From the IMG/VR virus record IMGVR_UViG_3300020196_000019: DNA of 64,000 nucleotides; one strand, written 5' to 3'. The position numbers were made by a program, and so were the translations under genes. Under the pieces are notes generated by a model. It was given only the letters and a program-made list of their open reading frames with translations. It was not told the DNA's origin and made no database searches. This DNA is from an uncultured virus (IMG/VR IMGVR_UViG_3300020196_000019). Taxonomy: Duplodnaviria > Heunggongvirae > Uroviricota > Caudoviricetes. This document shows, piece after piece, positions 48,437 through 61,722 of the stretch (positions are counted from its first letter, which is position 1; each line of letters starts with the position of its first letter).

Positions 48437-48448
48437 AACTATTGACTC

Positions 48449-48730: not shown

Positions 48731-49088
48731 GCTAGAAAAGGTTTCTGCCTCGAAGGTTCCAGAACTGCCCAAGATTACGTTTTTGGCAGAGAGACCTGTA
48801 AAATATGTAGAGATGGATTTTGACGTACCCGACGAGGTACTTGACGAGATTGCAGCCTACGGTATGAAATTAATTAAGGACGATAAAAACGCCCTTTTTA
48901 ATTATGCCTTCACGAAAATGCTCGAAGACTTGTGCGAAAAAGGCCCCGAAAGATGGAGCGGCTTCTACCCGGAGTACGTGTCCGGCTCTCTGCCCGGGGA
49001 AGCTGGAAAAGACTCTTCGAAAGAAAGAACTCAAAAGCGAAAAAGCCCTCGTAAAGTATCTGGGAAAGCTAATAAAGAGGGTCAGTAA
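48696..49088 (+). CDS. Hypothetical protein
   Basis: Frame of track ORF 48630-49088; true start uncertain. Confidence 0.4.
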   Translation, partial: CQSTVKKDPAYKLEKVSASKVPELPKITFLAERPVKYVEMDFDVPDEVLDEIAAYGMKLIKDDKNALFNYAFTKMLEDLCEKGPERWSGFYPEYVSGSLPGEAGKDSSKERTQKRKSPRKVSGKANKEGQ

Positions 49089-49160
49089 ATAAATCTCTAA
49101 TAGGGTCAATTGCAATACGTATGTTGACCGACAGCATAAAAAATTTTTTAGGAAAAATTT

Positions 49161-49439
49161 ATGGCTATTACCTTTGGCCCGAAACCCGAGAACCCGGCCT
49201 TTTTTAGCAATCAAGTTCAAGGGTTAGTTAACCGGACGGGCGACCTCCAACATCGCGTTGAATCTCTTGAGTACAAATACAAACAGATCTTTGAGTGCCT
49301 AACAGAGACTTTGGGGCGCATCCGCTCCTTGGAGCAGCATTACTTGTGGCTGGAAGGAACCGGGCCTTCCGCCAAGAAAATGCGTTGCAAGATGACCCCC
49401 AAACCTTCTAAACCTAGCTCTAAGGAGAAAAAACAATAA
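49161..49439 (+). CDS. Hypothetical protein
   Basis: 92 aa, AGGA RBS. Confidence 0.5.
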   Translation: MAITFGPKPENPAFFSNQVQGLVNRTGDLQHRVESLEYKYKQIFECLTETLGRIRSLEQHYLWLEGTGPSAKKMRCKMTPKPSKPSSKEKKQ

Positions 49440-49839
49440 AACTAGCTCTTAGCTGGATTTGCTACCATCTTGGCAACCTTTGGAGCCTAACTTTTCTTCA
49501 GCTTGGCCTTGGCTACCGGGTCTACAATCGTCTTATGATGTGGTCTTCAGATTTGGATACCCGTCAGAAGATTTGGAAAAACGTTTAGCGTCTTTATAGC
49601 GTCTTTAATAAGAGCCACGGCTATTTAAGAAAAAAGCCGATCCCTAAAATAAAATTTTTTTTTATTGTATGGGAGTCAACAATTCGCGTATGCGGGCGCG
49701 GGTGGGGGGTGGAGGGGTCGTAGGCCACAGAAAGAGGCAGGGGTGGCCGTTAAGGGCTACGCCCTTAAAACTTCGATTTGTCGTACAATAGGCATTATAT
49801 CAACTACGTTGATATAATCTTGATGGACAACGCCTTCGT

Positions 49840-50373
49840 TTAACCTGCTTTAGCAGGGTTAAACGGCAGATCGATCAGCGGTTTGGGCGGATTTGAAATC
49901 GTATCCGATTTCAAATTGGGAGTCGATGCCAGAAAAGCTACATTGATGATTGGCCTATTGTCAGTTCTACCCTGTTGATTCTCAAGACCATAGACTGACT
50001 TTGCAACATTGTGAACTTTATTGAGGGCATTGAAAGTTGTATCTACTTCATTTACAGAGACCATTGAAGATTGTTCTATTGCATTGATTCCACGATCAAC
50101 CTGTTTCTGCACCCTTTCCAGATAGCGTTTCTGTAAATTAGCAACAGAATCCTCTACAATGGATTGCTGAATTGCAATAGCTCTCTCTGCTGTTTCTCCG
50201 TGAACTTGTTCCCGTTCCTTGTCCCATTTACCCCGAAACACCCAACTACATATTGTGCCATAGGAGATATTATACTTCTTAGCTAAGTCCTTGTTAGTCA
50301 GTCTTGTAGTCAGATATGCAATCTTAACTTGCTCTTTTACATTCTGCCCAACCCTCACTCTCTTCTCACTCAT
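49840..50373 (-). CDS. Putative terminase small subunit
   Basis: N-terminal HTH (LTNKDLAKKYNISYGTICSWVFRGKW), helical core, YGL...IINV tail. Confidence 0.6.
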   Translation of the reverse strand: MSEKRVRVGQNVKEQVKIAYLTTRLTNKDLAKKYNISYGTICSWVFRGKWDKEREQVHGETAERAIAIQQSIVEDSVANLQKRYLERVQKQVDRGINAIEQSSMVSVNEVDTTFNALNKVHNVAKSVYGLENQQGRTDNRPIINVAFLASTPNLKSDTISNPPKPLIDLPFNPAKAG

Positions 50374-50379
50374 AGGGCT

Positions 50380-50408
50380 ACTCTAACAATTACTTACAGA
50401 TATTGCAA
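50380..50408 (-). promoter_or_regulatory. Sigma70-like leaderless promoter of the terS-like gene
   Basis: TTGCAA-N17-TAGAGT-N6-ATG. Confidence 0.55.
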
Positions 50409-50452
50409 CATCAGACCGAGCGTGTGCGTATGGAGGAATGGTTTCGCCGTCC

Positions 50453-50508
50453 CACCCTTTAGGGTGTCACGCAAAGTTCGTTTAACCGCAACCTAGGAGG
50501 CAACGATG
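50453..50508 (+). repeat. Early element copy 1 (hairpin-TGTCACG-N12-AACCGCAACCTAG-RBS)
   Basis: CACCCT-TT-AGGGTG tcacg caaagttcgttt AACCGCAACCTAGGAGG caacg ATG. Confidence 0.9.
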
Positions 50509-50572
50509 ACCAACGGCAAGTCGCCATCAGCAACTAGCCAGAGGGCATCCCAACCCAGAAAGAATCAAATCT

Positions 50573-50674
50573 ATGACAACCTATGAAACTGACTTCAATG
50601 ATCTCTGTGAATTGTTCGGAGTTTCCTTCGAGGAGAAGGAGATCGTGGCGATCAACCCTCCGTATTCTGAGTAA
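50573..50674 (+). CDS. Small hypothetical protein (33 aa)
   Basis: MTTYETDFNDLCELFGVSFEEKEIVAINPPYSE, below the track cutoff. Confidence 0.4.
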   Translation: MTTYETDFNDLCELFGVSFEEKEIVAINPPYSE

Positions 50675-50714
50675 TCAGTAGACCACAACTGATTATTTAC
50701 TAGGAAAACTTAAA

Positions 50715-50737
50715 CTCCCCCTCGGGGGAAAAGGAGA
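50715..50737 (+). repeat. RBS-hairpin repeat copy A
   Basis: CTCCCCCTCGGGGGAAAAGGAGA. Confidence 0.9.
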
Positions 50738-50745
50738 ACACGACT

Positions 50746-50976
50746 ATGAGTAAGAAGCACTTCGAGAAGATTGCTTGTGTATTGGCAAATAACTCTGACC
50801 AGAAGGCCAGAGAATCCTTAACGAAAGATATGATTGCATTCCTTGGAACCACCAACCCTCGCTTCAACCCCTTCCGTTTCATCGAAGCTGTAGAGACGCT
50901 GGCGAAGGGTCAGAGACCGAGCGGTTTTTCCAAGGCGACCTTCGACCACTACTTCGTAGTGTCACGAGCCGTTTAA
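50746..50976 (+). CDS. Early hypothetical protein
   Basis: MSKKHFEKIA...NPRFNPFRF; strong RBS. Confidence 0.7.
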   Translation: MSKKHFEKIACVLANNSDQKARESLTKDMIAFLGTTNPRFNPFRFIEAVETLAKGQRPSGFSKATFDHYFVVSRAV

Positions 50977-50991
50977 CCAACCGCAACCTAG
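50947..50991 (+). repeat. Early element copy 2
   Basis: CACTAC-TTC-GTAGTG tcacg N12 AACCGCAACCTAG; no immediate RBS. Confidence 0.9.
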
Positions 50992-51017
50992 AAAGCGAAC
51001 CGACAACCGAAACCAAC

Positions 51018-51040
51018 CTCCCCCTCGGGGGAAAAGGAGA
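51018..51040 (+). repeat. RBS-hairpin repeat copy B
   Basis: CTCCCCCTCGGGGGAAAAGGAGA. Confidence 0.9.
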
Positions 51041-51046
51041 CTGAAA

Positions 51047-51331
51047 ATGCTAATCACAAATCCAGTATTGCGTATGGCGAAACTCGAAGCCTTAGAAGCG
51101 AGACTCTGTATGCCGTCCAAAGGCTCCGTGCCTAGCTGGCTCGGGGACTCTGACCTACGCAACAGGGAGAAGAGGCTTGCCCATAGCCAAGCCGTCTCTG
51201 ATCGTCAGAGAATCGAAGGAGCTTGCGTCCTTGCCTTGCAAGGCAAACGGCTGAAGGAATGTGCCTCTGCCTACCGCTTGCAGGATAAGAAGACCATCAA
51301 AGTCGCCTTCCACTACAAACCCAAACAATAA
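51047..51331 (+). CDS. Early hypothetical protein
   Basis: 94 aa, strong RBS. Confidence 0.65.
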   Translation: MLITNPVLRMAKLEALEARLCMPSKGSVPSWLGDSDLRNREKRLAHSQAVSDRQRIEGACVLALQGKRLKECASAYRLQDKKTIKVAFHYKPKQ

Positions 51332-51336
51332 CCAAC

Positions 51337-51359
51337 CTCCCCCTCGGGGGAAAAGGAGA
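51337..51359 (+). repeat. RBS-hairpin repeat copy C
   Basis: CTCCCCCTCGGGGGAAAAGGAGA. Confidence 0.9.
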
Positions 51360-51369
51360 ACACACCTAT

Positions 51370-51477
51370 ATGACACCAGAACTATATCAAACCCTCGATG
51401 CAACCCTTCGCTACGGATTCCCCGCCTTCGTCACTCTGTTAGTGGCGTATGCGTGGTGGAGTTCACGGCGAAAATAA
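51370..51477 (+). CDS. Small single-TM protein (35 aa)
   Basis: MTPELYQTLDATLRYGFPAFVTLLVAYAWWSSRRK after the RBS repeat. Confidence 0.6.
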   Translation: MTPELYQTLDATLRYGFPAFVTLLVAYAWWSSRRK

Positions 51478-51481
51478 CCCC

Positions 51482-51537
51482 CACTCTTTAGAGTGTCACG
51501 CAAATCGAGTTTAACCGCAACCTAGGAGGCAACTATG
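51482..51537 (+). repeat. Early element copy 3
   Basis: CACTCT-TT-AGAGTG tcacg N12 AACCGCAACCTAGGAGG. Confidence 0.9.
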
Positions 51538-52134
51538 CAAACCAAAACCCGAGAACAATGGCTACAAAAGGCAGTCTCCGTCATTGGAGATCGCCTATTC
51601 ACCCCGAAAAACTTACCCCTACCCGAGAAAGTCCGAGTCAGCGTAGGGTGGCCAGGAGGTCGTGCGGACAAGAGTAAGGCAGTCGGCCAGCATTGGAAAC
51701 CTACTGCCTCGAGTGACCAGCATCACGAGATATTTATATCTCCCAAGATTGCTGACAACTCAGAGGAGATTCTAAGCACCCTTGTCCACGAGCTTGTCCA
51801 CGCTCAGTTGTATGCTGAGTATCCTACAGAGGGACACGGAAGACATTTCCGTAGGGTAGCAGAGGCAGTTGGCCTTGTCGGAGACCCAACCTCCGCAGGG
51901 GCATCACCCGAGCTACGCTCAGGACTATTCAAGGAGTTCCTTGCCCTCGAGGGGAATTGTCCCTCGGGTAGCATCGATTACTCCACCCGTAAGAAGGATG
52001 GAACCAGACTGATTAAGGCTGAGTGCAACGCTTGTGGATACGTCATCCGCACGTCCCGCAAGTGGATAGAAGACATTGGACTCCCCATCTGCAAGTGCGG
52101 AGGAGAGTTCCACGAACCCGAGAAGGGCGAATGA
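51535..52134 (+). CDS. SprT-like zinc metallopeptidase with C-terminal Zn ribbon
   Basis: HELVH, GHGRHF, CNAC...CKC. Confidence 0.75.
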   Translation: MQTKTREQWLQKAVSVIGDRLFTPKNLPLPEKVRVSVGWPGGRADKSKAVGQHWKPTASSDQHHEIFISPKIADNSEEILSTLVHELVHAQLYAEYPTEGHGRHFRRVAEAVGLVGDPTSAGASPELRSGLFKEFLALEGNCPSGSIDYSTRKKDGTRLIKAECNACGYVIRTSRKWIEDIGLPICKCGGEFHEPEKGE

Positions 52135-52202
52135 CCCACCACTACTTCGTAGTGTCACGAAAAGTTTGTTTAACCGCAACCTAGGAGGCAACGATGAACA
52201 CC
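52131..52202 (+). repeat. Early element copy 4 (72-bp exact repeat)
   Basis: Identical to 52412-52483. Confidence 0.95.
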
Positions 52203-52412
52203 ACCGAACGAAAACAATTCGAGGCAGACCTCTTCCACACTTGGCAGAGGCGAGCCACTACCGCAGAAGCCGAGAACATCCGACTAAGGAAGATCATCCA
52301 GAACATCGCCCCAATCTTCAGCCAGAGGCTTGAGGAGGTGCTTGCCAGCCTTGAGCGGGACGAACGGCGACAGGCTAACCCGCATTGGACTGACAAATAC
52401 CATAGGCCGTGA
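52194..52412 (+). CDS. Early hypothetical protein flanked by 72-bp direct repeats
   Basis: 72 aa, AGGAGG RBS. Confidence 0.7.
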   Translation: MNTTERKQFEADLFHTWQRRATTAEAENIRLRKIIQNIAPIFSQRLEEVLASLERDERRQANPHWTDKYHRP

Positions 52413-52483
52413 TGACCCACCACTACTTCGTAGTGTCACGAAAAGTTTGTTTAACCGCAACCTAGGAGGCAACGATGAACACC
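52412..52483 (+). repeat. Early element copy 5 (72-bp exact repeat)
   Basis: Identical to 52131-52202. Confidence 0.95.
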
Positions 52484-53584
52484 TACAACCTAACCCACAA
52501 CCAACTGAGAGCGGAGTGTGCAAAGCGACTGATCGGTTCGCCCAAGTGGCGAGCCAACGCATCGCCTACAGAGCTACGCACCGCTCTCTTGAAAGCCGAT
52601 TCCGCCAAGGGTGATTACTCACCCGCAACGGAGCAACCCCAACCCCAACCCAAGGAGACCACTACTATGCCCGAAGCATCGAAGCCCGAGGCCGTTCCGC
52701 CTTCCACGGATGCCCTCGCCAACACGCTCTTGCAAGTGCTACTGCCTCACTTGCCCCAGCAAGGAGTTCAAGAGGCACGTGTTCGTCAGATCGTCAGCGA
52801 GATCATCGAGACCAGACTTCCCAAGGAAGTTAAGGTCAAGCTCCCCGACGGCACAGAGAACAAGGTGGGAGTTGTCCACGAAGCGTTTAACCGCATCCTC
52901 CAAGCCGTCTCTGCCGACATTAGCGGTGGCATTCTGCTAGTGGGCGGAGCGGGGAGTGGCAAGACCACTACCTGCCACAAGGTAGCGGAGGCTCTTGGCC
53001 TACCCTTCCGCACCATCAGCGTGTGTAAGCAGACTACGCTCTCCCATCTGATGGGATTCATTAACGTGAGTGGGGAGTATGTCACTACCCCCTTCCGTGA
53101 AGCCTATGAGAAAGGTGGCGTGTTCCTCCTCGATGAGTTCGATGCGGGCAACGAGAACGTAGTTCTCTCGCTCAACTCGGCTCTCGCCAACGGAATATGT
53201 GAATTCCCCGACAAGCAAGTTCAACGCAACCCCAACTTCCGTTGTATCGCTTCGGCCAACACCTACGGCACAGGGGCGACCCTCGCCTTCGTAGGTAGGA
53301 ACAAGCTCGATGGTGCTACCCTCGACCGCTTCGTTGTCATCGAACACGACTACGACACGAAGCTCGAGTATGCTCTCTGTGGCAATCAGACTTGGGCGGA
53401 CAGGGTTATGTCCATCCGCAGGGCTATCGACAAGCTCAACATCCGTCACATCGTCAGTCCCCGAGCGTCCATCAACGGAGCCAAGCTCCTTGCCCTCGGA
53501 TGGAAGCAGAGCGAGGTGGAGCAAGCGTGTGTATGGAAGGGCTTAGATAAGAGCGAGGTGCAGAGAGTCCTCGCCACCCTCTAA
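52475..53584 (+). CDS. MoxR/CbbQ-like AAA+ ATPase
   Basis: GGAGSGKT, LLDEFD, ASANTYG, LDGATLDRF, VSPRA. Confidence 0.85.
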   Translation: MNTYNLTHNQLRAECAKRLIGSPKWRANASPTELRTALLKADSAKGDYSPATEQPQPQPKETTTMPEASKPEAVPPSTDALANTLLQVLLPHLPQQGVQEARVRQIVSEIIETRLPKEVKVKLPDGTENKVGVVHEAFNRILQAVSADISGGILLVGGAGSGKTTTCHKVAEALGLPFRTISVCKQTTLSHLMGFINVSGEYVTTPFREAYEKGGVFLLDEFDAGNENVVLSLNSALANGICEFPDKQVQRNPNFRCIASANTYGTGATLAFVGRNKLDGATLDRFVVIEHDYDTKLEYALCGNQTWADRVMSIRRAIDKLNIRHIVSPRASINGAKLLALGWKQSEVEQACVWKGLDKSEVQRVLATL

Positions 53585-53634
53585 AGAGGGTGTCACGTAA
53601 ACCCAAAGCAACCGCAACCTAGGAGACAACGATG
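53575..53634 (+). repeat. Early element copy 6
   Basis: CACCCTCT-AA-AGAGGGTG tcacg N12 AACCGCAACCTAGGAG; hairpin contains the ATPase stop codon. Confidence 0.9.
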
Positions 53635-54516
53635 AGCAAACGTTCAAATGCAACCAATGACGGAAGTGCAGGAAAGGTGTATCCACTCACCTACCAGCGG
53701 TTCCTCGAGATCGCTACCGACCCCGACCCTGCGAACAAGTGCAGATACCCGCATTCAATTACTCAGAATGCGACCAGCAAAAGCTGGGCGGACGGCACAA
53801 GCTATGAGCAGAGCATCACCCGCCTACGCCAAGGTTGGCCAGAGGGTGTAGCCAAGGCTCGGGAGTTGGCCTCCAAGCTCGAGAGCCGTTTAACCGCTGA
53901 GTATAGCTTCGCAACCGATACAAAGTGGGATGTGACGGGCGACTACTTCGACATTGGGCGAGTTCTCGAGGGAGAACCCGACTGCTGGGCGAGCGACATA
54001 GAATTGGACGACCAGTTCTCTAACGATAAGAAGGGCAAGATCGTGAGGGTATTGGTGAACGTAGCCGTCTCCGCTCACTACAATGCGGACATTCTCCTCG
54101 AGCGTGGCGTGTATGCCCTCGCCATCGTGGACTTGCTTGAGCGGATGGGCAAGAGCGTGGAGCTAGTTGCCAGTTGCAAGCTCGAGTATAACGGCAAGCG
54201 GTGGGCTTGGGAGTTGCCTTTGAAGCAAGCTGGCGAGGAGCTATCGATGGACAGAGTAGCCTTTATTGTCGGTTCCCCCGCTGGCTTTCGTAGGAGTTGG
54301 TTCCGAGTCATCACCCACACCGACTACCCCGACAGCGGAATGAGTTTGGGTATGCCCACCGATTGGACAGAGGAGGAGCTACGCAAGAGAGAGGTGGACA
54401 TCTACGTCGGAGCGTTGATGAGCGGACGCACACCTTGGCAGGGCAAGACTGATCTAGGGTTTATCATCAAGCAACTCGAGACAGCGGGCATCAAAGTCTC
54501 GAAGGAAGCGGTTTGA
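53632..54516 (+). CDS. VWA-like partner of the AAA ATPase
   Basis: Follows the MoxR-like ATPase; GDYFDIGRVLEGEPDC and VRVLVNVAVS...VDLLE..G patterns. Confidence 0.55.
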   Translation: MSKRSNATNDGSAGKVYPLTYQRFLEIATDPDPANKCRYPHSITQNATSKSWADGTSYEQSITRLRQGWPEGVAKARELASKLESRLTAEYSFATDTKWDVTGDYFDIGRVLEGEPDCWASDIELDDQFSNDKKGKIVRVLVNVAVSAHYNADILLERGVYALAIVDLLERMGKSVELVASCKLEYNGKRWAWELPLKQAGEELSMDRVAFIVGSPAGFRRSWFRVITHTDYPDSGMSLGMPTDWTEEELRKREVDIYVGALMSGRTPWQGKTDLGFIIKQLETAGIKVSKEAV

Positions 54517-54532
54517 GGTTAGGTTAAGGGTG

Positions 54533-54567
54533 CTGATGTCATAGGGTTCGATTCCCTATGGCATCGG
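54533..54567 (+). other. Hairpin with tRNA T-loop (TTCGATT)
   Basis: GATGTCATAGGG-TTCGATT-CCCTATGGCATC. Confidence 0.75.
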
Positions 54568-54571
54568 TTAA

Positions 54572-54599
54572 ACGAAACACGAAACACGAAACACGAAAC
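54572..54599 (+). repeat. Tandem heptamer (ACGAAAC)x4
   Basis: Read directly. Confidence 0.9.
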
Positions 54600-54614
54600 A
54601 TTAACGGAGGTACA

Positions 54615-54803
54615 ATGAAACACGTTCGCTACTACAACCTACGAGAATTACAGGACATCGCAGAGAGCGAGGGCTTTTCACTTACGGAAGCTCCCAAGGA
54701 AAAGAAAATCTTTATTTCTAAGGAGGAAGATACGGATGACTTCGGTTATTTCGAGCAAGTGTCAAAGGACAAGTACATCTTCAAACTTTTTTGGGTTGGA
54801 TAA
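54615..54803 (+). CDS. Early hypothetical protein, paralog of 56900-57076
   Basis: GGAGG RBS before ATG 54615. Confidence 0.65.
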   Translation: MKHVRYYNLRELQDIAESEGFSLTEAPKEKKIFISKEEDTDDFGYFEQVSKDKYIFKLFWVG

Positions 54804-54824
54804 AAACAAAGGAGAATAACTACA

Positions 54825-55121
54825 ATGTCATCCCCCTATTCCATCTGCAAAGCAGACCGCATCCACCGCAAAATCCTCGTGCTGACCCGCCTTGCCCGCA
54901 GGTTCTACGAGGAGAACGAAACCGATAAACTCTGCGAAATCCTCAGCGATGCCTTGGACACCACTCTTCGGAACATCGAAGCCGTCGTGGACGCACATTG
55001 CGAGCATACGCTCTTGACTGCCCTCCTTCGCAATCCGTACACGGCGAGCTTTTACGACGTGGACGAACTCTGTTGTCTTCTTAACGTCCCAAACTCGAAG
55101 TCCCAAACCACTACTTCGTAG
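54825..55121 (+). CDS. Early hypothetical protein
   Basis: AAGGAG RBS. Confidence 0.65.
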   Translation: MSSPYSICKADRIHRKILVLTRLARRFYEENETDKLCEILSDALDTTLRNIEAVVDAHCEHTLLTALLRNPYTASFYDVDELCCLLNVPNSKSQTTTS

Positions 55122-55164
55122 TGTCACGCAAACAAACTTCAACCGCAACCTAGAGGGCACAATG
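55109..55164 (+). repeat. Early element copy 7
   Basis: CACTAC-TTC-GTAGTG tcacg N12 AACCGCAACCTAGAGGG. Confidence 0.9.
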
Positions 55165-55413
55165 ACAACCGACAAACACAATCCCACCTTTACGATGGAC
55201 AACATCAACCAGTACATCGACAGCCGTGTGGAGCAACTGCAAATGTACATCTCCGACTTCCAACAACAATCCCTGCGAGCGAAGGGCGAACACTTTCGTA
55301 ATCTTTGCTCGATGATCGGAGACTACAACGGACGGAAGATGGAGCTTATTACCTTGCAATCCAACTTTCGCCTCGGAGTATACAACCCCTTCAAAGCACC
55401 ACCGAAACACTAA
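55162..55413 (+). CDS. Early hypothetical protein
   Basis: 83 aa after the element. Confidence 0.65.
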   Translation: MTTDKHNPTFTMDNINQYIDSRVEQLQMYISDFQQQSLRAKGEHFRNLCSMIGDYNGRKMELITLQSNFRLGVYNPFKAPPKH

Positions 55414-55432
55414 CCAAAAGGAACGAAACACT

Positions 55433-55840
55433 ATGAAACGAACCCGAACCATTGAAATCGAAGACACGCTACCAGAGCGGGTAGAACAAGCCATCGAAGC
55501 GGTTAAACAGGAGCTTCTCAATTACCTTGAGGAGAATCCCAACCAACGCAGAACGCCGTGCATCAGCAACACCTTGGACTACAGCGGAACCATCCACGAA
55601 ATCATTGATAGTGCCGTGCCCATCTACACCCGAGAGATCAACGACACTTGGTATCTGCACGGAAGCGAACTCGAGGAAGCCTACGAAAACGCTGGCCTCG
55701 GGCACAACCCTCGGGAAAACAACGGAATGGTAGCCATCTACTGCTTCATCTCCGACAGGGTACATAATTGGTACAATAACAATGCGAGCGACATCTTCAA
55801 CGAATGGAAGGAGAAGCAAGATGAAAAAGAAACTGATTAA
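55433..55840 (+). CDS. Early hypothetical acidic protein
   Basis: 135 aa; HEIIDSAVPIYT motif. Confidence 0.65.
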   Translation: MKRTRTIEIEDTLPERVEQAIEAVKQELLNYLEENPNQRRTPCISNTLDYSGTIHEIIDSAVPIYTREINDTWYLHGSELEEAYENAGLGHNPRENNGMVAIYCFISDRVHNWYNNNASDIFNEWKEKQDEKETD

Positions 55841-56027
55841 CTATATGCTTGACGTTGCCTTCACCATCGAAACGCCCATCTCGAATTGGTACGACATTCC
55901 CGCCATCGACCTTGTGGATGCCTTGCAACGCAGGGTGGACTACCTGCGAGAGAATCTTGATGAGGCGGGGGATGCCTTTGGACTTTGCGATAGCTACGAA
56001 ATCGAAACGGAGGAAACAACCAAATGA
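55821..56027 (+). CDS. Early hypothetical protein
   Basis: AGGAG RBS before ATG 55821. Confidence 0.6.
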   Translation: MKKKLINYMLDVAFTIETPISNWYDIPAIDLVDALQRRVDYLRENLDEAGDAFGLCDSYEIETEETTK

Positions 56028-56206
56028 AGAAATACAGAATCGAAGCAACCGCCGTCACCACCTACGAGCTTATCGTAGAGGCAGACAGCAAAGAAGAAGC
56101 CATCAAGAAAACTCTGAACGGAGAACACGCCGATTGTTGGGAAGCCATAGACGAAAGTTCTTTCGACTATGACAAGGCTTCCGTAGAGGAGTTGTCCGAA
56201 GAATGA
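56024..56206 (+). CDS. DpnD/PcfM-like small protein
   Basis: MKKYRIE...VEADSKEEA. Confidence 0.55.
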   Translation: MKKYRIEATAVTTYELIVEADSKEEAIKKTLNGEHADCWEAIDESSFDYDKASVEELSEE

Positions 56207-56523
56207 AGAAGCAATACACCCTGCTGAACGGAGAACAACAAAACTCCGAACACCCATCCTTCCATATCCCAACCTTGAAAGAGCGGTTAAACGTCAAGCC
56301 AGACACCTACGTAAAACTTTGCTTTCGCATACTGAATCCCAAGAAGGACAAGCCTTCGGGAGAACGTATGTGGGTGAAGGTACTCTCAACGACCCCCATT
56401 GGAGGGGAGTACGAGGGAGCCTTGGCAAACCAACCCTTCTTTGCGAAGGGCATCAAGTTCGGTAGCAGGGTTCAATTTTCTGCGAAACATATCATCGACA
56501 TTCAACCCCCCGAGGAGGAATAA
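56203..56523 (+). CDS. DUF2314-like protein
   Basis: GERMWVKV...YEGALANQP...G..V.F...HIID. Confidence 0.55.
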   Translation: MKKQYTLLNGEQQNSEHPSFHIPTLKERLNVKPDTYVKLCFRILNPKKDKPSGERMWVKVLSTTPIGGEYEGALANQPFFAKGIKFGSRVQFSAKHIIDIQPPEEE

Positions 56524-56527
56524 CAAC

Positions 56528-56674
56528 GTGAACACGGACAAAAACTTTCTCGAACATCTTTGGGAGAAGCGGGTGCAAGAACTCGAAGCGGAGGGATGCA
56601 CCACCTCTGACGCACAGAGCATAGCAGATGCAGAGATGGAAAAGAATGCAACTTGGGGATGGGCAAAGGAATGA
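56528..56674 (+). CDS. Small hypothetical protein
   Basis: GAGGAGG RBS, GTG start; ELEAEGCTTSDAQ motif. Confidence 0.55.
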   Translation: MNTDKNFLEHLWEKRVQELEAEGCTTSDAQSIADAEMEKNATWGWAKE

Positions 56675-56898
56675 ACGGCATCACAGAAGAACGCTTGCTG
56701 GGCATCCTTGAGTACGTGAAGGACAACGAAGCCCTTCCAGAACTCTCCACCCACGAAGACGAACAACTTGTCGGGCGAAACAAACTAGTTTGGGACTACG
56801 AAGTGTGGAGCCGTGGGTACTGGCTCACCGACAAGGGCGTGGATTGGATGACCAGCCTACGCAACGCAAACATTCAACCTGAAAACGTGGAGAACTAA
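56671..56898 (+). CDS. Early hypothetical protein
   Basis: ATGA overlap; YWLTDKG winged-helix-like tail. Confidence 0.55.
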   Translation: MNGITEERLLGILEYVKDNEALPELSTHEDEQLVGRNKLVWDYEVWSRGYWLTDKGVDWMTSLRNANIQPENVEN

Positions 56899-56899
56899 A

Positions 56900-57076
56900 A
56901 TGTATACACTTGAACAAATTAGCCAGCTTGCCGAGGAGTGGGGATGGAAGACCACTAGATGTTTAAACGACTTCGAGGATGCCGTGCTTATCAGCACCCA
57001 TCGTCACGAGGACTACTTCGGGCAATTCGACAAACAGGAGGACGGAAGATTCAACTTTCGTTTCAAGCAACTATGA
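56900..57076 (+). CDS. Early hypothetical protein (58 aa), paralog of 54615-54803
   Basis: MYTLEQISQLAEEWGW...DYFGQFD; below the track cutoff; GGAG RBS. Confidence 0.6.
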   Translation: MYTLEQISQLAEEWGWKTTRCLNDFEDAVLISTHRHEDYFGQFDKQEDGRFNFRFKQL

Positions 57077-57309
57077 GCCTACCAATTATTACGCAAGGAA
57101 ATGTACGCACAAGTGACGGACAACTTCACTACCTGCTCAGCCGTCAGAAGCCTATGGGCTTTGCCCTCACGGAAGAGCGGGTAGGCAAGGCTGACCGCTT
57201 TGTGATTCGGGGAACCGACTTTTCCGATTCCGAGCAGTTTACCATTTGCGAACTATATGCAGGTGAGGAACTTGTGCCCATACACTCGGAGAAAATACAG
57301 GGCTACTAG
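57073..57309 (+). CDS. Early hypothetical protein
   Basis: ATGA overlap. Confidence 0.55.
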   Translation: MSLPIITQGNVRTSDGQLHYLLSRQKPMGFALTEERVGKADRFVIRGTDFSDSEQFTICELYAGEELVPIHSEKIQGY

Positions 57310-57315
57310 CCGACC

Positions 57316-57371
57316 CATTACTACGTAATGTCACGCAAATCGACTTCAACCGCAACCTAGGAGGTACAATG
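57316..57371 (+). repeat. Early element copy 8
   Basis: CATTAC-TAC-GTAATG tcacg N12 AACCGCAACCTAGGAGG. Confidence 0.9.
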
Positions 57372-57803
57372 AGCAACCAAACTGACGAACAAAAAATGGA
57401 ACAACTGGCTAAGATTCTCACGGACTTTGCCGAAAATAACAACATCCCGCCCTACTTACGCTGGGGCTTGCAGGTGCTATTCGTGGCGGGTAGCGACAGC
57501 ACCGAGCGTAGCAACGTGGTAGCAGGGCTAATGAGTGTGGGGGAACGAGCCTTCGACAAAGCCATCGAGAAGATTAAAGCCTCGGGCGATGCGGAGGGAG
57601 GGGAGAAGCTGATTAACGACAAGGCACAGATGCTCAAGATGGCTATGGCCATTGACCTTGCAGGGGCGATGGCATCCCTATTGAAAGGCAAGCTGGGCGA
57701 GGCTGGAAAAGACGTGATAGTAGCCGTTGCTTCCGAACCCTCGAAACCCGAAGCAGTCTTCCCGTACAAAGGCAAGGATAACCCCTTTGCAGGGAGGAAC
57801 TAA
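57369..57803 (+). CDS. Early hypothetical protein
   Basis: 144 aa after the element. Confidence 0.7.
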   Translation: MSNQTDEQKMEQLAKILTDFAENNNIPPYLRWGLQVLFVAGSDSTERSNVVAGLMSVGERAFDKAIEKIKASGDAEGGEKLINDKAQMLKMAMAIDLAGAMASLLKGKLGEAGKDVIVAVASEPSKPEAVFPYKGKDNPFAGRN

Positions 57804-57820
57804 AATAAGACGTTTAACCA

Positions 57821-58093
57821 ATGAAACAAAACCATATTGAAACTCTCGATGCGATACAATGGAAGAAGTGGCAAAGTATGATGGAATCTTTTTCGCCTAG
57901 GTTGCAGAACGTGTGTCGTTCGGCGGGCTTGTTTCTTTGTGGGCGTATGTGGAAAAAGGGACACGGCGTTAGCGGTAGCGACATCAACCATCGCCTCTTC
58001 GATCTGTGGCTTTTTTGTGACACGAACACTTACGAGTACTTAGGCAGATGTGTAGAGGTTGCCTTTGAACAAGGAGGAACTGATGAGCAATAA
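57821..58093 (+). CDS. Hypothetical protein
   Basis: 90 aa ORF. Confidence 0.5.
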   Translation: MKQNHIETLDAIQWKKWQSMMESFSPRLQNVCRSAGLFLCGRMWKKGHGVSGSDINHRLFDLWLFCDTNTYEYLGRCVEVAFEQGGTDEQ

Positions 58094-58409
58094 ACCGATG
58101 GCTTCCATTGAGCCAGCCTTCACGACCAAGGATGGAGGGGAGATTCGTGCTGTCCTACACAAAGACGGCTCGCCCGATGACGGGTATGCCTATGGAAACC
58201 CCGCCTCTTCCCACATTCTCACCGACTTTGAGACGGAGGGAAACTTGGGCGTGGTGCGTCTCGGACTTACCAAAACTACGTGGGGGAGTTTATTCCTCAC
58301 CAACTACCAAGAGATGTACCTAAGTGTGAGTGAGGCCAAAGACCTTGTGCGTCACTTACAAAATGCCATCTATGACGCAACCCCAACAGGAAAGGCTACC
58401 GCAGTATGA
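58083..58409 (+). CDS. Hypothetical protein
   Basis: AGGAGG RBS before MSNKP. Confidence 0.6.
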   Translation: MSNKPMASIEPAFTTKDGGEIRAVLHKDGSPDDGYAYGNPASSHILTDFETEGNLGVVRLGLTKTTWGSLFLTNYQEMYLSVSEAKDLVRHLQNAIYDATPTGKATAV

Positions 58410-58612
58410 ACGAAAAGAAAAAGTATGTTGTCTTCGCTGAATGCACTTCCTACTACTCAATGGAAGTAGAGGCGAGTAGTGCAGATGAGGCGAATCGGAT
58501 TGCCGAAGAAAGTGACGGCGGGGAGTGGACAGAGGATTCCAACGGCAAGTGGATTATCAATGACGAACTTACTCACTTAGTAGACACCACAAATAAGGAG
58601 GAGCAGGTATGA
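58406..58612 (+). CDS. DpnD/PcfM-like small protein
   Basis: KKYVV...EVEASSADEA..IA. Confidence 0.55.
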   Translation: MNEKKKYVVFAECTSYYSMEVEASSADEANRIAEESDGGEWTEDSNGKWIINDELTHLVDTTNKEEQV

Positions 58613-58743
58613 AAATAAACCAAATCGAAACCAATGAGCTACGCAAGCTCAAGGAAACACTCGAGGGCAAGAATCAACAGGAGTCCGTGTACTTCCGTCA
58701 CGTAGCGGAGGAACTGGCTCGCCGTACGGAGGTACAGAAATGA
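58609..58743 (+). CDS. Small hypothetical protein (44 aa)
   Basis: AGGAGG RBS, ATGA overlaps on both sides. Confidence 0.55.
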   Translation: MKINQIETNELRKLKETLEGKNQQESVYFRHVAEELARRTEVQK

Positions 58744-58916
58744 TCTTCGAGCGTGGCGAGTACAAGGGCAACCCAATGCTCATCATCAAGCGGGACGAGA
58801 AAGACCGCTTCCCTTTCAGCCTTGGCCTCAAGAAAGCCGAGATGTTGTTAAAGGAGGATGTGCAGAAGGAACTTGAGAAGTTTGTTCTCGATAACACGGC
58901 GGGAGAAGCACCCTAA
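58740..58916 (+). CDS. Small hypothetical protein (58 aa)
   Basis: MIFERGEYKGNPMLIIK...FPFSLGLKKAEMLL; GGAGG RBS. Confidence 0.6.
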   Translation: MIFERGEYKGNPMLIIKRDEKDRFPFSLGLKKAEMLLKEDVQKELEKFVLDNTAGEAP

Positions 58917-59137
58917 TGGCTACATTGATTAACAAGCGTTTGTTTAAACAGCATTTGTTGAGCCTGTCGGCTCTCAATGCGTCCAAGCGAAACGAAGCAC
59001 GAAGGGAGATGGGTTTACTGGCGAACCTAAAGCCGTGTACCCGAGTCTCGGAAGAGACCTACAACGAGGCGACTTCTACCTTGTTGAATTGGATGAAGAA
59101 CCACGTCATTGAAACCAAGAAGGGGAAAACACTATGA
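58916..59137 (+). CDS. Small basic protein, possible histone fold
   Basis: LINKRLFKQHL...TRVSEETY...LLNWMKNHV...KGKTL. Confidence 0.45.
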   Translation: MATLINKRLFKQHLLSLSALNASKRNEARREMGLLANLKPCTRVSEETYNEATSTLLNWMKNHVIETKKGKTL

Positions 59138-59280
59138 GCAAAACAAAAACAATAACACCCATAATGGTTGAGGATTGGCTTAAAAGCGAAGCCTGTTCTT
59201 ATCAAATCTTGGCTGACGTGGCAAATGGCAAATTAAAACCTTCAGAGTTAAAAGAAGATATTTCTATTTACATAGATAAC
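59134..59280 (+). CDS. Small hypothetical protein
   Basis: ATGA overlap; MSKTKTITPIMVEDWL... Confidence 0.5.
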
Positions 59281-59294
59281 GAAAGGAGTTCACG

Positions 59295-59483
59295 ATGAAG
59301 AAGCAACCAATCAAAAACTTTATCGCCAAGCTGGAAGCGTTGGCCGATGAGTTGCGGGACTTGCGAGATAGCAAGGTTAATCCTTGCAAAGATGAAAATG
59401 TAGAGGGCGTATGCCCTTGTCACACCTTCGATCAAGCAATTGACCACATCGAAAACACACAACAGATACTTAAAACTCTATAA
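59295..59483 (+). CDS. Hypothetical protein
   Basis: AAGGAG RBS. Confidence 0.55.
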   Translation: MKKQPIKNFIAKLEALADELRDLRDSKVNPCKDENVEGVCPCHTFDQAIDHIENTQQILKTL

Positions 59484-59498
59484 GAAAGGGAAAACACT

Positions 59499-60077
59499 AT
59501 GAGCAAAACCAAAACAAAAACCAAAAAGAAAGTTAATCCGTACGACAGCATTCCATTCGGAGCAACCGAGGAGCAACACGAAGTTCTTCGGGAATGGCTT
59601 GACCTCGATGCAAAGAGCGGAAGCGGATGGAATCCGCATAGCTACAGGGGCAAGAACGATATTCTAACCAAGCACAATCGGAAAGCCCTACAGAGAGCCT
59701 TCGACAAGTATAAGATTAAAAACGTTGTCGTTGAGTTTGATGGATGCGGAGACAGCGGACAAATTGAGCAGGTACTTGTCAATGGAGAGACCTACGAGAA
59801 TAGAGCTTCTCAAACTGCGTACGACTTCATTAGCCACACAGGCTCCACTTATTGCGGAGACGGAACAAGAAACCACGGCTGGGCGTTGAATCCAAGCCTG
59901 TACGATGCCATCGAATCGTATTGCTACGGCATCCTAGAGGGGGAACACGGCGGATGGGAGATCAATGGTGGCTCCTTCGGCAGTTTCAACTTCCAGAACA
60001 AGAATGGGAAGTTTACCTGCACACTCGAAATGAACGAGCGTATTGAGGAGACCCATAGCTCCACGGAAAGCTACTAA
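59499..60077 (+). CDS. DUF6878-like protein
   Basis: VEFDGCGDSGQIE and GWEINGGSFG motifs. Confidence 0.65.
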   Translation: MSKTKTKTKKKVNPYDSIPFGATEEQHEVLREWLDLDAKSGSGWNPHSYRGKNDILTKHNRKALQRAFDKYKIKNVVVEFDGCGDSGQIEQVLVNGETYENRASQTAYDFISHTGSTYCGDGTRNHGWALNPSLYDAIESYCYGILEGEHGGWEINGGSFGSFNFQNKNGKFTCTLEMNERIEETHSSTESY

Positions 60078-60430
60078 TGGCAAACCCCTACCACCACGCC
60101 GTTAGCTCTGCCAAGAAGTGGGGCGGAAAGCCCGAGGACTACCAAGCCATTCACGATTGGTTCGATGAATCAAAGATGATGATGGCGGACTTCCGCCACA
60201 GAGCCTTGCGTCATCACGCCGAAGGGTGCTTTATGGCCGAACGTATCTTCGGGCACACGCTTACCAACGCCCTTGGTAGAAAAATACCTGTCCGCTGGGT
60301 GGCGGAACAGCACGTGAAGGAAGACCTCGGGTTTATCCCATCGATGCAAGATTGGCTGTCACAGATTCAGCCGAAGCCTTGGATGGGTAAAACCCAAAAA
60401 CTACAGGAGGAACTGGCAACCGCCGTTTAA
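60077..60430 (+). CDS. DUF6915-like His-rich protein
   Basis: MANPYHHAVSSAKKWGG...IHDWFDESK...RHRALRHH...EQHVKEDLG. Confidence 0.75.
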   Translation: MANPYHHAVSSAKKWGGKPEDYQAIHDWFDESKMMMADFRHRALRHHAEGCFMAERIFGHTLTNALGRKIPVRWVAEQHVKEDLGFIPSMQDWLSQIQPKPWMGKTQKLQEELATAV

Positions 60431-60435
60431 ACATT

Positions 60436-60720
60436 ATGGACTATTGGGTAAGAACACGAGACCAGATTACAGAAAACAAAAACGAAGACCTCATTGTGTT
60501 CGTTTGGACACGAGAGGAGCTAGAGGCATCCGTGGAGGATATGACGGACGATGAGTGGGAGATGTTTCTTGAGAAAGTTCGGGACACTAACCATCCCGAA
60601 AAACTCGTTCGGCACACGAAGGCGATGAAAAGCCTTCGCCAAGCGGACGTGGACTTGGAAGCGTCTCTGTTTGATTTGGTAGAAGAAGTAAAGAAAGGAA
60701 TAAAGGAGAAAAAAAAATGA
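60436..60720 (+). CDS. Hypothetical protein, paralog of the next gene
   Basis: LIVFVWTREE...MTDDEWE. Confidence 0.55.
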   Translation: MDYWVRTRDQITENKNEDLIVFVWTREELEASVEDMTDDEWEMFLEKVRDTNHPEKLVRHTKAMKSLRQADVDLEASLFDLVEEVKKGIKEKKK

Positions 60721-61001
60721 GTATGATATGCACAAAAAAGAAAATGCTGGAAAGATTGTCCTCCGTAGGGGAAAACGAGAAGATTCTATTCCTGTTTTGG
60801 GAAAAAGCGGAGTTTGATAGGGACATCAAAGGCCGAGAACTTTTTAATTCGGAATGGGAGAAGATTCTTGAAAGCGTTGAAACCGATTCAGCCGATCAAC
60901 TTATTAGCGATCAAATCACCGAACAAGTAGGTGAGATTGCTTGTGAGGAAGAAGTACTAGAGAAACAAATTAAAAGATTCCACAGGAGGAAAAAGAAATG
61001 A
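60717..61001 (+). CDS. Hypothetical protein
   Basis: ILFLFWEKAE...LFNSEWE. Confidence 0.55.
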   Translation: MSMICTKKKMLERLSSVGENEKILFLFWEKAEFDRDIKGRELFNSEWEKILESVETDSADQLISDQITEQVGEIACEEEVLEKQIKRFHRRKKK

Positions 61002-61504
61002 GTATTTGTAAGAAGTTCTTTGCGAAGTATTTGCCCAAGGGTGTGAAGAATAAGTGCAACCAGTTGGGAAAGCGTTATCGCCGTTTGGAAGACAGAGACG
61101 AGCGGAACGATACCGATGACTTCCACGGAAGCGATGAGCCAAGCGAAATCCGCGATAAGATTATCGCGTTGATGGAGCCAGCGGTTAAACGCTACGCCAA
61201 AGATTTGTTCAGTCCGAAGGCGTTGGAAAAAGCTGATTACATCTCTATGGAGGGAGAGTTTGTAATGACCGAATCTTTCGGTGATGACAGCATTGAATTT
61301 TTCTGCGTAAAGCGTAGGAAATTAAAAGGGCATCTGGATGGTCTTGAACAAGGCTACGTGGCAAGCGTACGCACAAGTTATTGGGACGCTCCCGAATGGA
61401 CTTGTGACGATTCCACCGCAGTTCCCACCTTGGGCGAAGCCTTCGAGTGGGGCTTCGGGGACGCTATGGCGTACCATTTTATTAGCGAGGAGGTGCGTAC
61501 GTAA
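60998..61504 (+). CDS. Hypothetical protein
   Basis: 168 aa, ATGA overlap. Confidence 0.55.
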   Translation: MSICKKFFAKYLPKGVKNKCNQLGKRYRRLEDRDERNDTDDFHGSDEPSEIRDKIIALMEPAVKRYAKDLFSPKALEKADYISMEGEFVMTESFGDDSIEFFCVKRRKLKGHLDGLEQGYVASVRTSYWDAPEWTCDDSTAVPTLGEAFEWGFGDAMAYHFISEEVRT

Positions 61505-61528
61505 ATACGTACGAGCTACTTATGCAAA

Positions 61529-61559
61529 TGTCACGAAAAGGGACGGCAACCGCAACCTA
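61529..61559 (+). repeat. Early element copy 9 (hairpin displaced)
   Basis: TGTCACG aaaagggacggc AACCGCAACCTA; hairpin CGTACGTA-AA-TACGTACG at 61496-61513. Confidence 0.8.
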
Positions 61560-61569
61560 TAGGCAAAGG

Positions 61570-61722
61570 ATGAAGAAGACGGAAAAGACTAGGGAGAAGA
61601 ACGCAAAGGCTATCGTGATTGCCCATCTTATTCTTAACGGACAACGAATTAACTTCGGGAGAGACAAAGACCTAAAGCGTAGGACTTCGATTGCTCTCGA
61701 AACAATGATGGAGAGACTATGA
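61570..61722 (+). CDS. Small hypothetical protein
   Basis: ATG after element copy 9. Confidence 0.5.
   Translation: MKKTEKTREKNAKAIVIAHLILNGQRINFGRDKDLKRRTSIALETMMERL

Follow-up and report, generated by a model that had tools for sequence, protein, structure and literature searches.

A stretch of 64,000 nucleotides from an uncultured virus of the Caudoviricetes (IMG/VR record IMGVR_UViG_3300020196_000019), hereafter called the window in its full length, carries nine copies of an intergenic element in which a hairpin is followed by two invariant sequence boxes at a fixed distance. The locus raises the question of what such an element does at the boundaries of small early genes, and what reads it. 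A first-pass annotation, made from the sequence alone, had proposed a phage-specific bipartite promoter/operator combined with a structural element. The promoter with its structural element is the reading best supported by the sequence, and the operator half finds no support, the neighbouring helix-turn-helix (HTH) protein looking more like a small terminase than a regulator. More specifically, the analysis points to a cassette of the kind known as promoter-early stem-loop (PeSL) in the T4-like phages RB49 and phi1 (Arbiol et al. 2010, PMC2839356), with a two-box signal of a non-housekeeping type that would be read by a bacterial-type polymerase. We give this reading a probability of roughly one half.

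A repeated element with fixed geometry and a covarying hairpin

An exact-pattern search for TGTCACG-N12-AACCGCAACCTA (box 1, a 12-nt spacer and box 2) returns nine matches in the window, all on the + strand and all with 0 mismatches when up to 3 were allowed. Box 1 of copies 1 to 9 starts at 50465, 50960, 51494, 52153, 52434, 53591, 55122, 57329 and 61529. Dinucleotide-preserving shuffles (n = 100) give a mean of 0.00 matches and a maximum of 0, bearing out the first-pass description of nine copies with invariant boxes and a 12-nt spacer, the coordinates and listed stem sequences of which are also correct. A covariance model built from the 30 distinct copies described below recovers just the nine known copies in the window, at 39.7-64.5 bits, with a best non-copy score of 10.1 bits (E 0.37); searched against the window and an 80-kb relative together, it returns just the 9 and 6 known copies, the following score being 10 bits. 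All nine lie within 50.4-61.6 kb, and the pattern and covariance-model searches agree with the earlier observation that the replication and virion modules hold none. The ribosome-binding sites and start codons reported after the copies are likewise there: an SD-like (Shine-Dalgarno-like) GGAGG, GGAGA or GAGGG stands directly past box 2 in seven copies, with AAAGG in copy 9, and the ATG lies 9-10 nt past box 2 in 8/9. Rfam, which had been named as a check, gives 0 matches at the gathering threshold in the 64-kb window, and a tRNA search of the window finds none. A search of IMG/VR for the exact motif gave 0 matches, and no description of the motif was found in a narrow search of the text of published papers.

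The element is found in relatives of the window in variant forms. An IMG/VR relative of 80,254 bp, rated 100% complete and encoding proteins 79-85% identical to those of the window, has no match to the exact motif even at 3 mismatches. It carries six copies of a variant, TGTCACC...CTCAACCTA, one base shorter, at orthologous places that include the block head and the positions before the AAA ATPase gene and the DUF7192 gene, and none elsewhere. Eight further loci from lake metagenomes were obtained in a metagenome scan. With duplicates removed by the stretch from -24 to +12, which takes out the copies of loci L007, L009, L011 and L013, the set comprises 30 distinct copies: nine from the window, six from the 80-kb relative (G001), four from L008, six from L010, four from L012 and one from L014. 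Lineages A and A' have TGTCACG-N12-AACCGCAACCTA, lineage B has TGTCACG ... ACTTCAACCTA at a length equal to A, and lineage C is one base shorter than A and B. The lineages differ in G or C past TGTCAC, in ACCG versus ACTT ahead of CAACCTA and in a spacing of 17 versus 18 nt, and share a core of TGTCAC, N18 (A, A' and B; 19 distinct copies) or N17 (C; 11 copies), and CAACCTA. TGTCAC is present in 29/30 copies, with GGTCAC in the remaining one, and the seventh base is G or C. No indel occurs inside any lineage although the spacer sequences diverge widely. Distant phages that share DUF7192 (L018, L019, L021 and L022) have no comparable repeat family; the element is restricted to one clade of uncultured freshwater phages.

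Alignment of the 30 copies reveals a third conserved block downstream of the boxes. Counting from the end of CAACCTA, position +4 is a purine in 30/30 (25 G, 5 A) and +6 a C in 28/30, while +7 is A in 24/30 and G in 4/30, and +8 is A in 23/30, giving R-N-C-A-A at +4 to +8 after a mixed +1 to +3. The block is kept when the ATG lies 6, 7, 9-11, 13-14 or 26-31 nt away, and when +1 to +5 reads GGAGG, AAGGA, ATTGC, ACTGC, TTTAG or TGTGG; because it is independent of both the ATG distance and the SD sequence, it is tied to the box and not to translation signals. In 4/30 copies, all of lineage C, the A of the block coincides with the first base of the ATG (G001 25281, to which L008 5131 and L014 383 correspond, and G001 35236), the junctions reading …ATTACC-ATG, …ATTGCC-ATG and …TGTGGC-ATG, and at L010 2886 the ATG lies 1 nt beyond the A of the block. 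Some copies have their ATG at 6-7 nt without any SD sequence. An S-N-A-A-A pattern also follows TGTCAC, with A at +3 in 27/30 copies and at +4 in 26/30.

The hairpin of the element is present in 8/9 window copies (all but copy 9) as a perfect Watson-Crick stem of 5-7 bp with a loop of 3-4 nt, and its 3' arm terminates exactly at the G of GTCAC. Because the arm ends there, the stem includes the TG of box 1, so that the eight hairpins, described in the first pass as abutting the box, are present and in fact overlap it by 2 nt. An anchored perfect stem of at least 4 bp is found in 26/30 distinct copies and of at least 5 bp in 23/30, compared with 1.8% and 0.4% of shuffled upstream sequences, respectively; among the other GTCAC sites in the window, 0/48 have an anchored stem of at least 4 bp. 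When the alignment is scored in one fixed register, a 6-bp stem with a 3-nt loop that misplaces the 4-nt-loop forms, 78.0% of cells are paired versus 63.8 +/- 2.0% in shuffles, and the covariation score is 0.385 versus 0.180, a value reached by 0/500 shuffles; in slid registers 27-41% of cells pair. Orthologous sites show genuine compensation. At the end of the AAA gene, where the 5' arm codes for Thr-Leu and the loop contains the stop codon, the non-coding 3' arm complements each of ACC-CTC, ACC-CTG and ACT-CTT, the change from ACC to ACT being synonymous. The 15 distinct hairpins comprise 84 bp with 0 wobble pairs, with folding energies of -2.2 to -10.8 kcal/mol as RNA and -2.2 to -6.3 kcal/mol as DNA. 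Loops are 3 nt in 10/15 and 4 nt in 5/15; the triloops are mostly TTC, TCC or TAC on the + strand and read as C(GNA)G in 6/10 cases on the template strand and in 1/10 on the + strand. The distance from the loop centre to a G is 12 nt in lineages A and B and 13 nt in lineage C. Intrinsic terminator scoring flags none of the + strand hairpins, and no T-run follows them. Selection acts on the hairpin as a base-paired structure, the register of which is locked to box 1.

Copy 1 lies opposite a divergent gene and is the only sequence there that is conserved across the three lineages covering that region. It retains all of its parts in the three, with differing stems, and the interval upstream of it is 80 nt in the window versus about 330 nt of unrelated sequence in the relatives. 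As judged from the conservation of the boxes, their spacing, the start-like C-A block and the base-paired stem, the element is under selection.

Genes have changed places between the copies. Positions 52131-52202 and 52412-52483 of the window, which flank a 72-amino-acid (aa) open reading frame (ORF), are 100% identical over 72 nt. In L012, a SprT gene is followed by one copy and then by the AAA gene, the homologue of the 72-aa ORF standing after a different copy, and in L010 this homologue stands after DUF7192. A 98-aa gene (90.7% identity) stands ahead of the SprT copy in L010 and ahead of copy 7 in the window. Because genes change slots and identical copies flank one ORF, the element acts like a PeSL cassette.

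A promoter reading and its rivals

From these features we infer promoter function, a start site and a kind of reader. The element would be recognised by a multisubunit bacterial-type RNA polymerase with a specificity factor other than the housekeeping sigma, whether phage-encoded and unrecognised, virion-delivered or a host alternative sigma. This factor would contact TGTCAC (about -37 to -32) together with CAACCTA (about -13 to -7), and transcription would start at the conserved C-A, 7 nt past box 2, giving leaders of 0-1 nt in some relatives, of 3-5 nt in most window copies and otherwise of 20-25 nt containing an AAAGGA Shine-Dalgarno sequence. Box centres 23-24 bp apart correspond to the -35/-10 layout of promoters of the sigma-70 family, and a pyrimidine-purine pair 7 nt past a -10-like hexamer is the usual bacterial start context. 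The geometry of the element fits a promoter of the sigma-70-family type, with boxes near -35 and -10 and a C/A start, but the box sequences are not sigma-70-like. The hairpin could act as an extruded DNA hairpin aiding recognition, as in phages N4 and LUZ7, or as an RNA stem-loop closing and insulating the upstream message, and recombination between copies would move small genes among slots; as the copies are alike, they may double as recombination points. Support for a promoter comes from the spacing that stays fixed despite variable spacers, the C-A block where a start would lie, the position of copy 1 at the block head without another conserved signal upstream, and the confinement of all copies to one strand and one region. 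A scan for sigma-70-like sites across 47-64 kb found 17 versus 14.7 +/- 3.5 expected, no enrichment, and none of the nine element sites is listed on the + strand.

Other promoter and translation signals were considered and set aside. A T7-like start immediately past box 2 is at odds with the lack of conservation at +1 to +3, and a T7-like single-subunit promoter was rejected on this ground and for want of an RNA_pol match, no combination of the motifs of such a polymerase being found either. A sigma-54 promoter was rejected because, in the sequence read by eye, the GG is absent and no TTGC is conserved at N4-5. Base-pairing between box 2 and the 16S rRNA 3' end was considered as well; compared by eye with the E. 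coli sequence, the complementary parts come in the wrong order.

Several results weigh against the promoter cassette read by a bacterial-type polymerase. No sigma or RNA polymerase family was found among the 58 + 35 + 47 + 31 ORFs scanned in the window and the 80-kb relative, and searches with Pfam, PHROGs, NCBIfam, PDB sequences and a motif scan identified no reader in either genome. CAACCT agrees with TATAAT only in the A at -11 and the T at -7, and the element may be the promoter type of a host sigma factor. Profile searches of genome contigs with alignments of the AAA protein and the DNA polymerase found no relative that would indicate a host, and none of the 24 metagenome runs in which the sequence is present is an RNA run containing 50400-58400; these are lake or freshwater runs, all DNA or DNA-guessed. 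A start at the C-A is awkward in that it puts the GGAGG of seven window copies at -6 to -2, upstream of the start, and hence absent from the cassette's own transcript and usable just in read-through RNA. The hairpin is absent in 4/30 copies that keep both boxes and is therefore probably not obligatory, and RNAalifold on the full 30-row alignment predicts 0 pairs and no consensus structure, which is attributed to the hairpins differing in length and register. Finally, the copies are partly homogenised within genomes, as is shown by the first four copies of L010, which are identical over all 31 nt. This inflates their apparent conservation, and bases that are invariant within a lineage are not necessarily the mark of a co-evolving reader. 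The first-pass annotation overlooked this homogenisation, as it did the PeSL-type shuffling of the cassette, the N4/LUZ7-like form of the hairpin and the GGAGG that, in a sigma-type geometry, would lie upstream of the start.

It had also stated that no polymerase or sigma gene is visible in the window, which holds and extends to the complete 80-kb relative, including 16 kb absent from the window. A tblastn search with N4 gp1, gp2, gp15, gp16 and mini-vRNAP (vRNAP, virion RNA polymerase) gave nothing below E 0.09, and PDB sequence searches with four unannotated proteins gave nothing meaningful. In the relative, an ORF of 3795 aa (L005 2201-13588, - strand) adjoins the virion genes in a position like that of the N4 vRNAP gene, and window positions 3-1040 (- strand) hold the first 346 codons of its homologue. 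This giant protein has Pfam matches to LPD38, weakly to ART-PolyVal and to two others, with no polymerase family among them; N4 gp50, scanned as a positive control, gives four vRNAP Pfam families. Its PHROG matches are families of unknown function, NCBIfam and PDB sequence searches return nothing, and an Atlas search gave no usable match. BLASTP finds no similarity to N4 gp50, and polymerase motif B is absent under a pattern that finds it in gp50. An N4-type virion polymerase was rejected for this protein, as it lacks the vRNAP domains, motif B and gp50 similarity. Its middle part has only a domain of about 200 aa in common with other phage proteins, those of actinophages and cyanophages, and over its last 900 aa it shares 32% identity with giant proteins of Stx, Vibrio and Ralstonia podophages and of Burkholderia phages. 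Stx phages are transcribed by the host enzyme. The giant protein is read as a putative polyvalent ejection protein (PMC5512222).

The HTH protein (177 aa) encoded divergently from the block was considered as a regulator and rejected, looking more like a small terminase. Its PHROG matches are to terminase-small-subunit and DNA-binding families, and its structural model, of mediocre quality (pLDDT 67.8), has as best PDB fold match the prophage protein 2ao9, a weak match at E 0.23, which we take to be terminase-small-subunit-like. The gene lacks a Shine-Dalgarno sequence, and a TTGCAA-17-TAGAGT site, found by eye, ends 6 nt ahead of its ATG, for which reason the message may be leaderless. Lineages B and C have a palindrome, GTATTGCATTGCAATAC, upstream of this gene.

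The regular linkage of the element to gene ends and gene starts could also be read at the level of RNA. In a long early transcript, the hairpin and UCAC would then serve to process, stabilise or attenuate the RNA where each upstream message ends, and CAACCUA...CAA would be a leader element bound by a phage or host factor that controls how the following gene is translated; T7 RNase III sites and the start-associated sequences of Cluster K phages would be parallels. Every copy is in sense orientation, with the upstream stop codon in the loop (copy 6), in the 3' arm (copy 7) or 4-8 nt before the hairpin (copies 3, 4, 5 and 8), and the ATG distance of 9-10 nt in 8/9 window copies comes with a well-spaced SD sequence in seven. 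The start-associated sequences are likewise in one orientation in the non-structural half, before start codons, with lineage variants and no known function (PMC3203893). However, copy 1 has no upstream gene or conserved upstream promoter from which it would be transcribed and is complete in three lineages, and in relatives the ATG distance ranges over 6-31 nt, some ATGs at 6-7 nt lacking an SD sequence, with the C-A-A fixed to the box. As RNA the stems are weak (-2.2 to -10.8 kcal/mol) and free of G-U in 84 bp, no other conserved pairing occurs in the element, and Rfam has no match, so that an RNA-level role is considered unlikely. The absence of wobble pairs also speaks for a hairpin promoter of the N4/LUZ7 type, in which the hairpin would extrude when the DNA is supercoiled. 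A phage polymerase of unrecognisable sequence would bind the template-strand hairpin and the TCAC junction and start at the G that follows TGTCAC, 12-13 nt beyond the centre of the loop, leaving CAACCTA and C-A-A as a conserved 5' leader. Stems of 4-7 bp, 3-nt loops in 10/15 and template-strand C(GNA)G in 6/10 triloops are in keeping with this. At the left end of N4 itself, GTTGC-TTC-GCAAC and AGAAGC-TCC-GCTTCT lie upstream of gp1 and gp2 and fit the published account of its virion-polymerase promoters. Conservation is confined to the outer bases of the stem, the inner ones being free, as in N4 (PMC4496689), and LUZ7 offers parallels in nine early starts, in a start at a G 13-14 nt away from the centre of the hairpin, and in having some few promoters with no hairpin (PMC9163698). 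The S-N-A-A-A past TGTCAC is conserved as an initially transcribed region would be, the hairpin of copy 1 is kept with different stems in three lineages, and a giant virion protein is encoded where N4 has its virion polymerase. That protein, however, shows none of the four vRNAP Pfam domains, motif B or BLASTP similarity, and its C-terminal 900 aa match giant proteins of Stx, Vibrio and Ralstonia podophages; no N4-like polymerase is found otherwise, tblastn with N4 proteins giving nothing below E 0.09. Both boxes are kept in the 4/30 hairpin-less copies, and the fixed 17/18 nt to CAACCTA and the C-A-A 30 nt past the start are left unexplained, which makes an N4-type promoter improbable.

A protein-binding site outside transcription, namely a repressor 'stoperator', a recombination site resembling an integron attC or a nicking or priming signal, would account for an asymmetric element in one orientation at gene boundaries between which genes move, and its GTGTC could be a short site of the kind used by T7-type primases. 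It is nonetheless very improbable. No integrase or recombinase was found in 30 large window ORFs (PHROGs) or 47 early-region ORFs, the neighbouring HTH protein resembles small terminases and not repressors, and the linkage to gene starts and restriction to 11 kb are unlike priming or nicking signals. Protein half-sites need no covariation of the inner stem, and homologous recombination between 50-70-nt repeats suffices for the shuffling, as proposed for PeSLs (PMC2839356).

A two-box promoter cassette of this kind would matter in several ways. Phage-specific promoters without a recognisable reader point to undiscovered transcription factors or polymerases, and they are compact, orthogonal parts for synthetic biology. 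The present signal is unusually well defined, with three conserved blocks, fixed spacing and a covarying hairpin, and its four natural variants are ready-made specificity mutants. Shuffling cassettes of the promoter/stem-loop kind known from T4-like coliphages would have a counterpart, built on another type of promoter, among uncultured freshwater phages that form an unrelated clade. If the hairpin acts in DNA, hairpin promoters would no longer be peculiar to N4-like phages. A more speculative and rather doubtful possibility is that the element represents a new structure-assisted class of promoter, an N4-type DNA hairpin fused to a two-box signal, the reader of which would be either host polymerase retargeted by a phage or virion factor or a polymerase of an undescribed family; hairpin-dependent transcription would then extend beyond the N4-like phages.

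The individual copies and neighbouring features

The window is a novel phage: its DNA polymerase and terminase are 21-30% identical to those of the nearest isolated phages, and a blastn search of 50300-58200 against about 50,700 phage records gave no match. Virion genes on the - strand extend up to the large terminase gene (37537-39333) and are followed on the + strand by a replication block (39375-47401) encoding a resolvase, helicase, exonuclease, family-A polymerase and primase-like protein, and by a short block (47869-49439). The HTH gene (49840-50373) is on the - strand, and the small-gene block bearing the nine copies follows on the + strand.

Copy 1 (50453..50508) heads this rightward block with the hairpin CACCC-TTTA-GGGTG (50453-50466), TGTCACG at 50465-50471, AACCGCAACCTA at 50484-50495, C-A at 50501-50502 and an ATG at 50506. 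Copy 2 (50947..50997) has the hairpin CACTAC-TTC-GTAGTG (50947-50961) and boxes at 50960-50990; the preceding 76-aa ORF extends across hairpin and box 1 to a stop at 50974-50976. This copy lacks an immediate ATG, and a second hairpin and ribosome-binding-site repeat, AACCTCCCCCTCGGGGGAAAAGGAGA, present in three copies, intervenes before the gene at 51047. Copy 3 (51482..51537), before a SprT-like gene, has the hairpin CACTC-TTTA-GAGTG (51482-51495), boxes at 51494-51524, C-A at 51530-51531 and an ATG at 51535. The 72-aa ORF is preceded by copy 4 (52140..52196), with the hairpin CACTAC-TTC-GTAGTG (52140-52154), boxes at 52153-52183 and an ATG at 52194, and the CobS-like AAA ATPase gene by copy 5 (52421..52477), with its hairpin at 52421-52435, boxes at 52434-52464 and an ATG at 52475. 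Copy 6 (53575..53634), before the DUF7192 gene, has the hairpin CACCCTC-TAAA-GAGGGTG (53575-53592), with boxes at 53591-53621 and an ATG at 53632; the stop codon of the AAA gene (53582-53584) falls in its loop, the 5' arm being coding. The slot of copy 7 (55109..55164) is restricted to the lineage of the window; its hairpin CACTAC-TTC-GTAGTG (55109-55123), within the 3' arm of which the 98-aa ORF (54825-55121) terminates, is followed by boxes at 55122-55152 and an ATG at 55162. Copy 8 (57316..57371; hairpin CATTAC-TAC-GTAATG at 57316-57330, boxes at 57329-57359, ATG at 57369) heads a 4.2-kb stretch of close-packed genes without another copy, and the hairpin-less copy 9 (61529..61572) has its boxes at 61529-61559 and an ATG at 61570. 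All nine are on the + strand.

The CobS-like AAA ATPase (PHROG 249, AAA_5) and DUF7192 genes form a conserved pair (52475-54516, + strand), each with a copy of the element ahead of it in all four lineages. The second repeat, AAC(C/T)TCCCCCTCGGGGGAAAAGGAGA, occurs on the + strand at 50712-50747, 51015-51050 and 51334-51369, directly before the ATGs at 50746, 51047 and 51370. Its C5/G5 hairpin can extend, with CCUCC pairing with the GGAG of the Shine-Dalgarno sequence, suggesting a possible SD-sequestering leader; a terminator-like score is obtained on the - strand only.

Further signals lie upstream of the block. In both the window (47640-47790) and the relative (L004 1290-1420), the interval that separates the replication block from the next small genes contains four GGGGTGGACTT-like iterons and, after them, an AT-rich stretch that is also conserved (GAGTTTATTATAATG / ...TATAGTATG). 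This interval is a candidate origin or a candidate promoter region of host type. In the relative, a tRNA-Tyr gene (anticodon GTA; L004 1198-1280, + strand) lies between the replication block and the iterons, and the window has no tRNA. A G-rich tract followed by long perfect hairpins with 3-nt loops is found at 49695-49818 in the window, 3555-3676 in L004 and 820-940 in L010, just past the 3' end of the - strand HTH gene, the window hairpins being TTAAGGGC-TAC-GCCCTTAA (49750-49768) and ATTATATCAAC-TAC-GTTGATATAAT (49794-49818). A TATCAAC...GTTGATA core is present in three lineages, and the site could be a terminator or a packaging or origin signal. In the virion region, the gene for a 1407-aa protein (9145-13368, - strand) contains in-frame tandem repeats of 66 nt and 27 nt near its 5' end (13103-13350).

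Comparison with known systems

Among described signals, the upstream box most readily recalls the ECF41 promoters, TGTCACA-n16(+/-1)-CGTC or TGTT (Wecke et al. 2012, PMC3426412), a resemblance already pointed out in the first pass. It stands for the upstream box, both signals being bipartite with TGTCAC in common (6/7 positions), and fails for the downstream element: at 15-17 nt the window copies read CGCA, GCAA or CAAC and not CGTC, the invariant downstream box is 7-12 nt long, and no ECF41 sigma gene was seen. T7-like promoters, with about 20 contiguous conserved bp running into a conserved +1 to +3 and a polymerase gene in the genome, are unlike the element. Non-sigma-70 promoter motifs in phages without their own polymerase have been described for YuA, with nine sites, and 14-1, with eleven (PMC10914365). 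As in those phages, highly conserved phage-specific motifs stand here at presumed starts (theirs being mapped or presumed) without a polymerase gene, and such motifs are inactive or unexplained without phage factors. Unlike the element, which rests on sequence, theirs rest on mapped transcription starts, and the descriptions consulted mention no hairpin or two-box geometry.

The start-associated sequences (SAS) and ESAS of Cluster K mycobacteriophages, for which promoter or translation roles have been discussed (Pope et al. 2011, PMC3203893), share with the element many copies in one orientation in the non-structural half, just upstream of start codons, an upstream inverted repeat in about half or more of the copies, and subcluster-specific variants. 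However, the SAS is a 13-bp asymmetric sequence that contains the SD core and lies 3-7 bp from the start, whereas the invariant box here excludes the SD sequence and ends 6-31 nt from the ATG, and the 17-bp ESAS repeats do not covary as base pairs, as the stems here do.

The hairpin itself resembles those of N4 and LUZ7, promoters at which transcription starts at a purine 11-14 nt downstream of the loop centre. In the N4 virion-polymerase promoters, inverted repeats enclose a GC-rich heptamer, and some positions of the stem are conserved while others are free (PMC4496689); LUZ7 has nine early starts with hairpins of at least 4 bp, 3-nt loops and a G start 13-14 nt from the centre (PMC9163698). 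The element matches these in a stem of 4-7 bp, a 3-nt loop of the form T-N-C on the coding strand with C-G closing, a conserved outer and covarying inner stem, conserved bases after the stem, among them a G at 12-13 nt from the centre of the loop, and about nine early-region copies, few of them hairpin-less. It differs in that neither the window nor the 80-kb relative shows an N4-type polymerase, and in having a second invariant box 17-18 nt downstream together with C-A-A, the hairpin being apparently dispensable in 4/30 copies.

The PeSL cassettes of RB49 and phi1 are a close counterpart in organisation, although not in sequence. Their boxes match the sigma-70 consensus, which TGTCAC and CAACCTA do not, and their stem-loops are GC-rich, with G-T pairs and five positions, and have been shown to terminate transcription, unlike the short, perfectly Watson-Crick stems found here without a T-run and locked to box 1 in a single register; the two systems also belong to different host clades and show no similarity in sequence. 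In both systems, however, repeated intergenic cassettes lie among small non-essential early genes in the order upstream stop, stem-loop, two promoter boxes, SD sequence and ATG, and the stem-loop may overlap the upstream box. Recombination between PeSL copies moves ORFans (PMC2839356), and in both systems copies flank ORFans and mediate their gain, loss and relocation.

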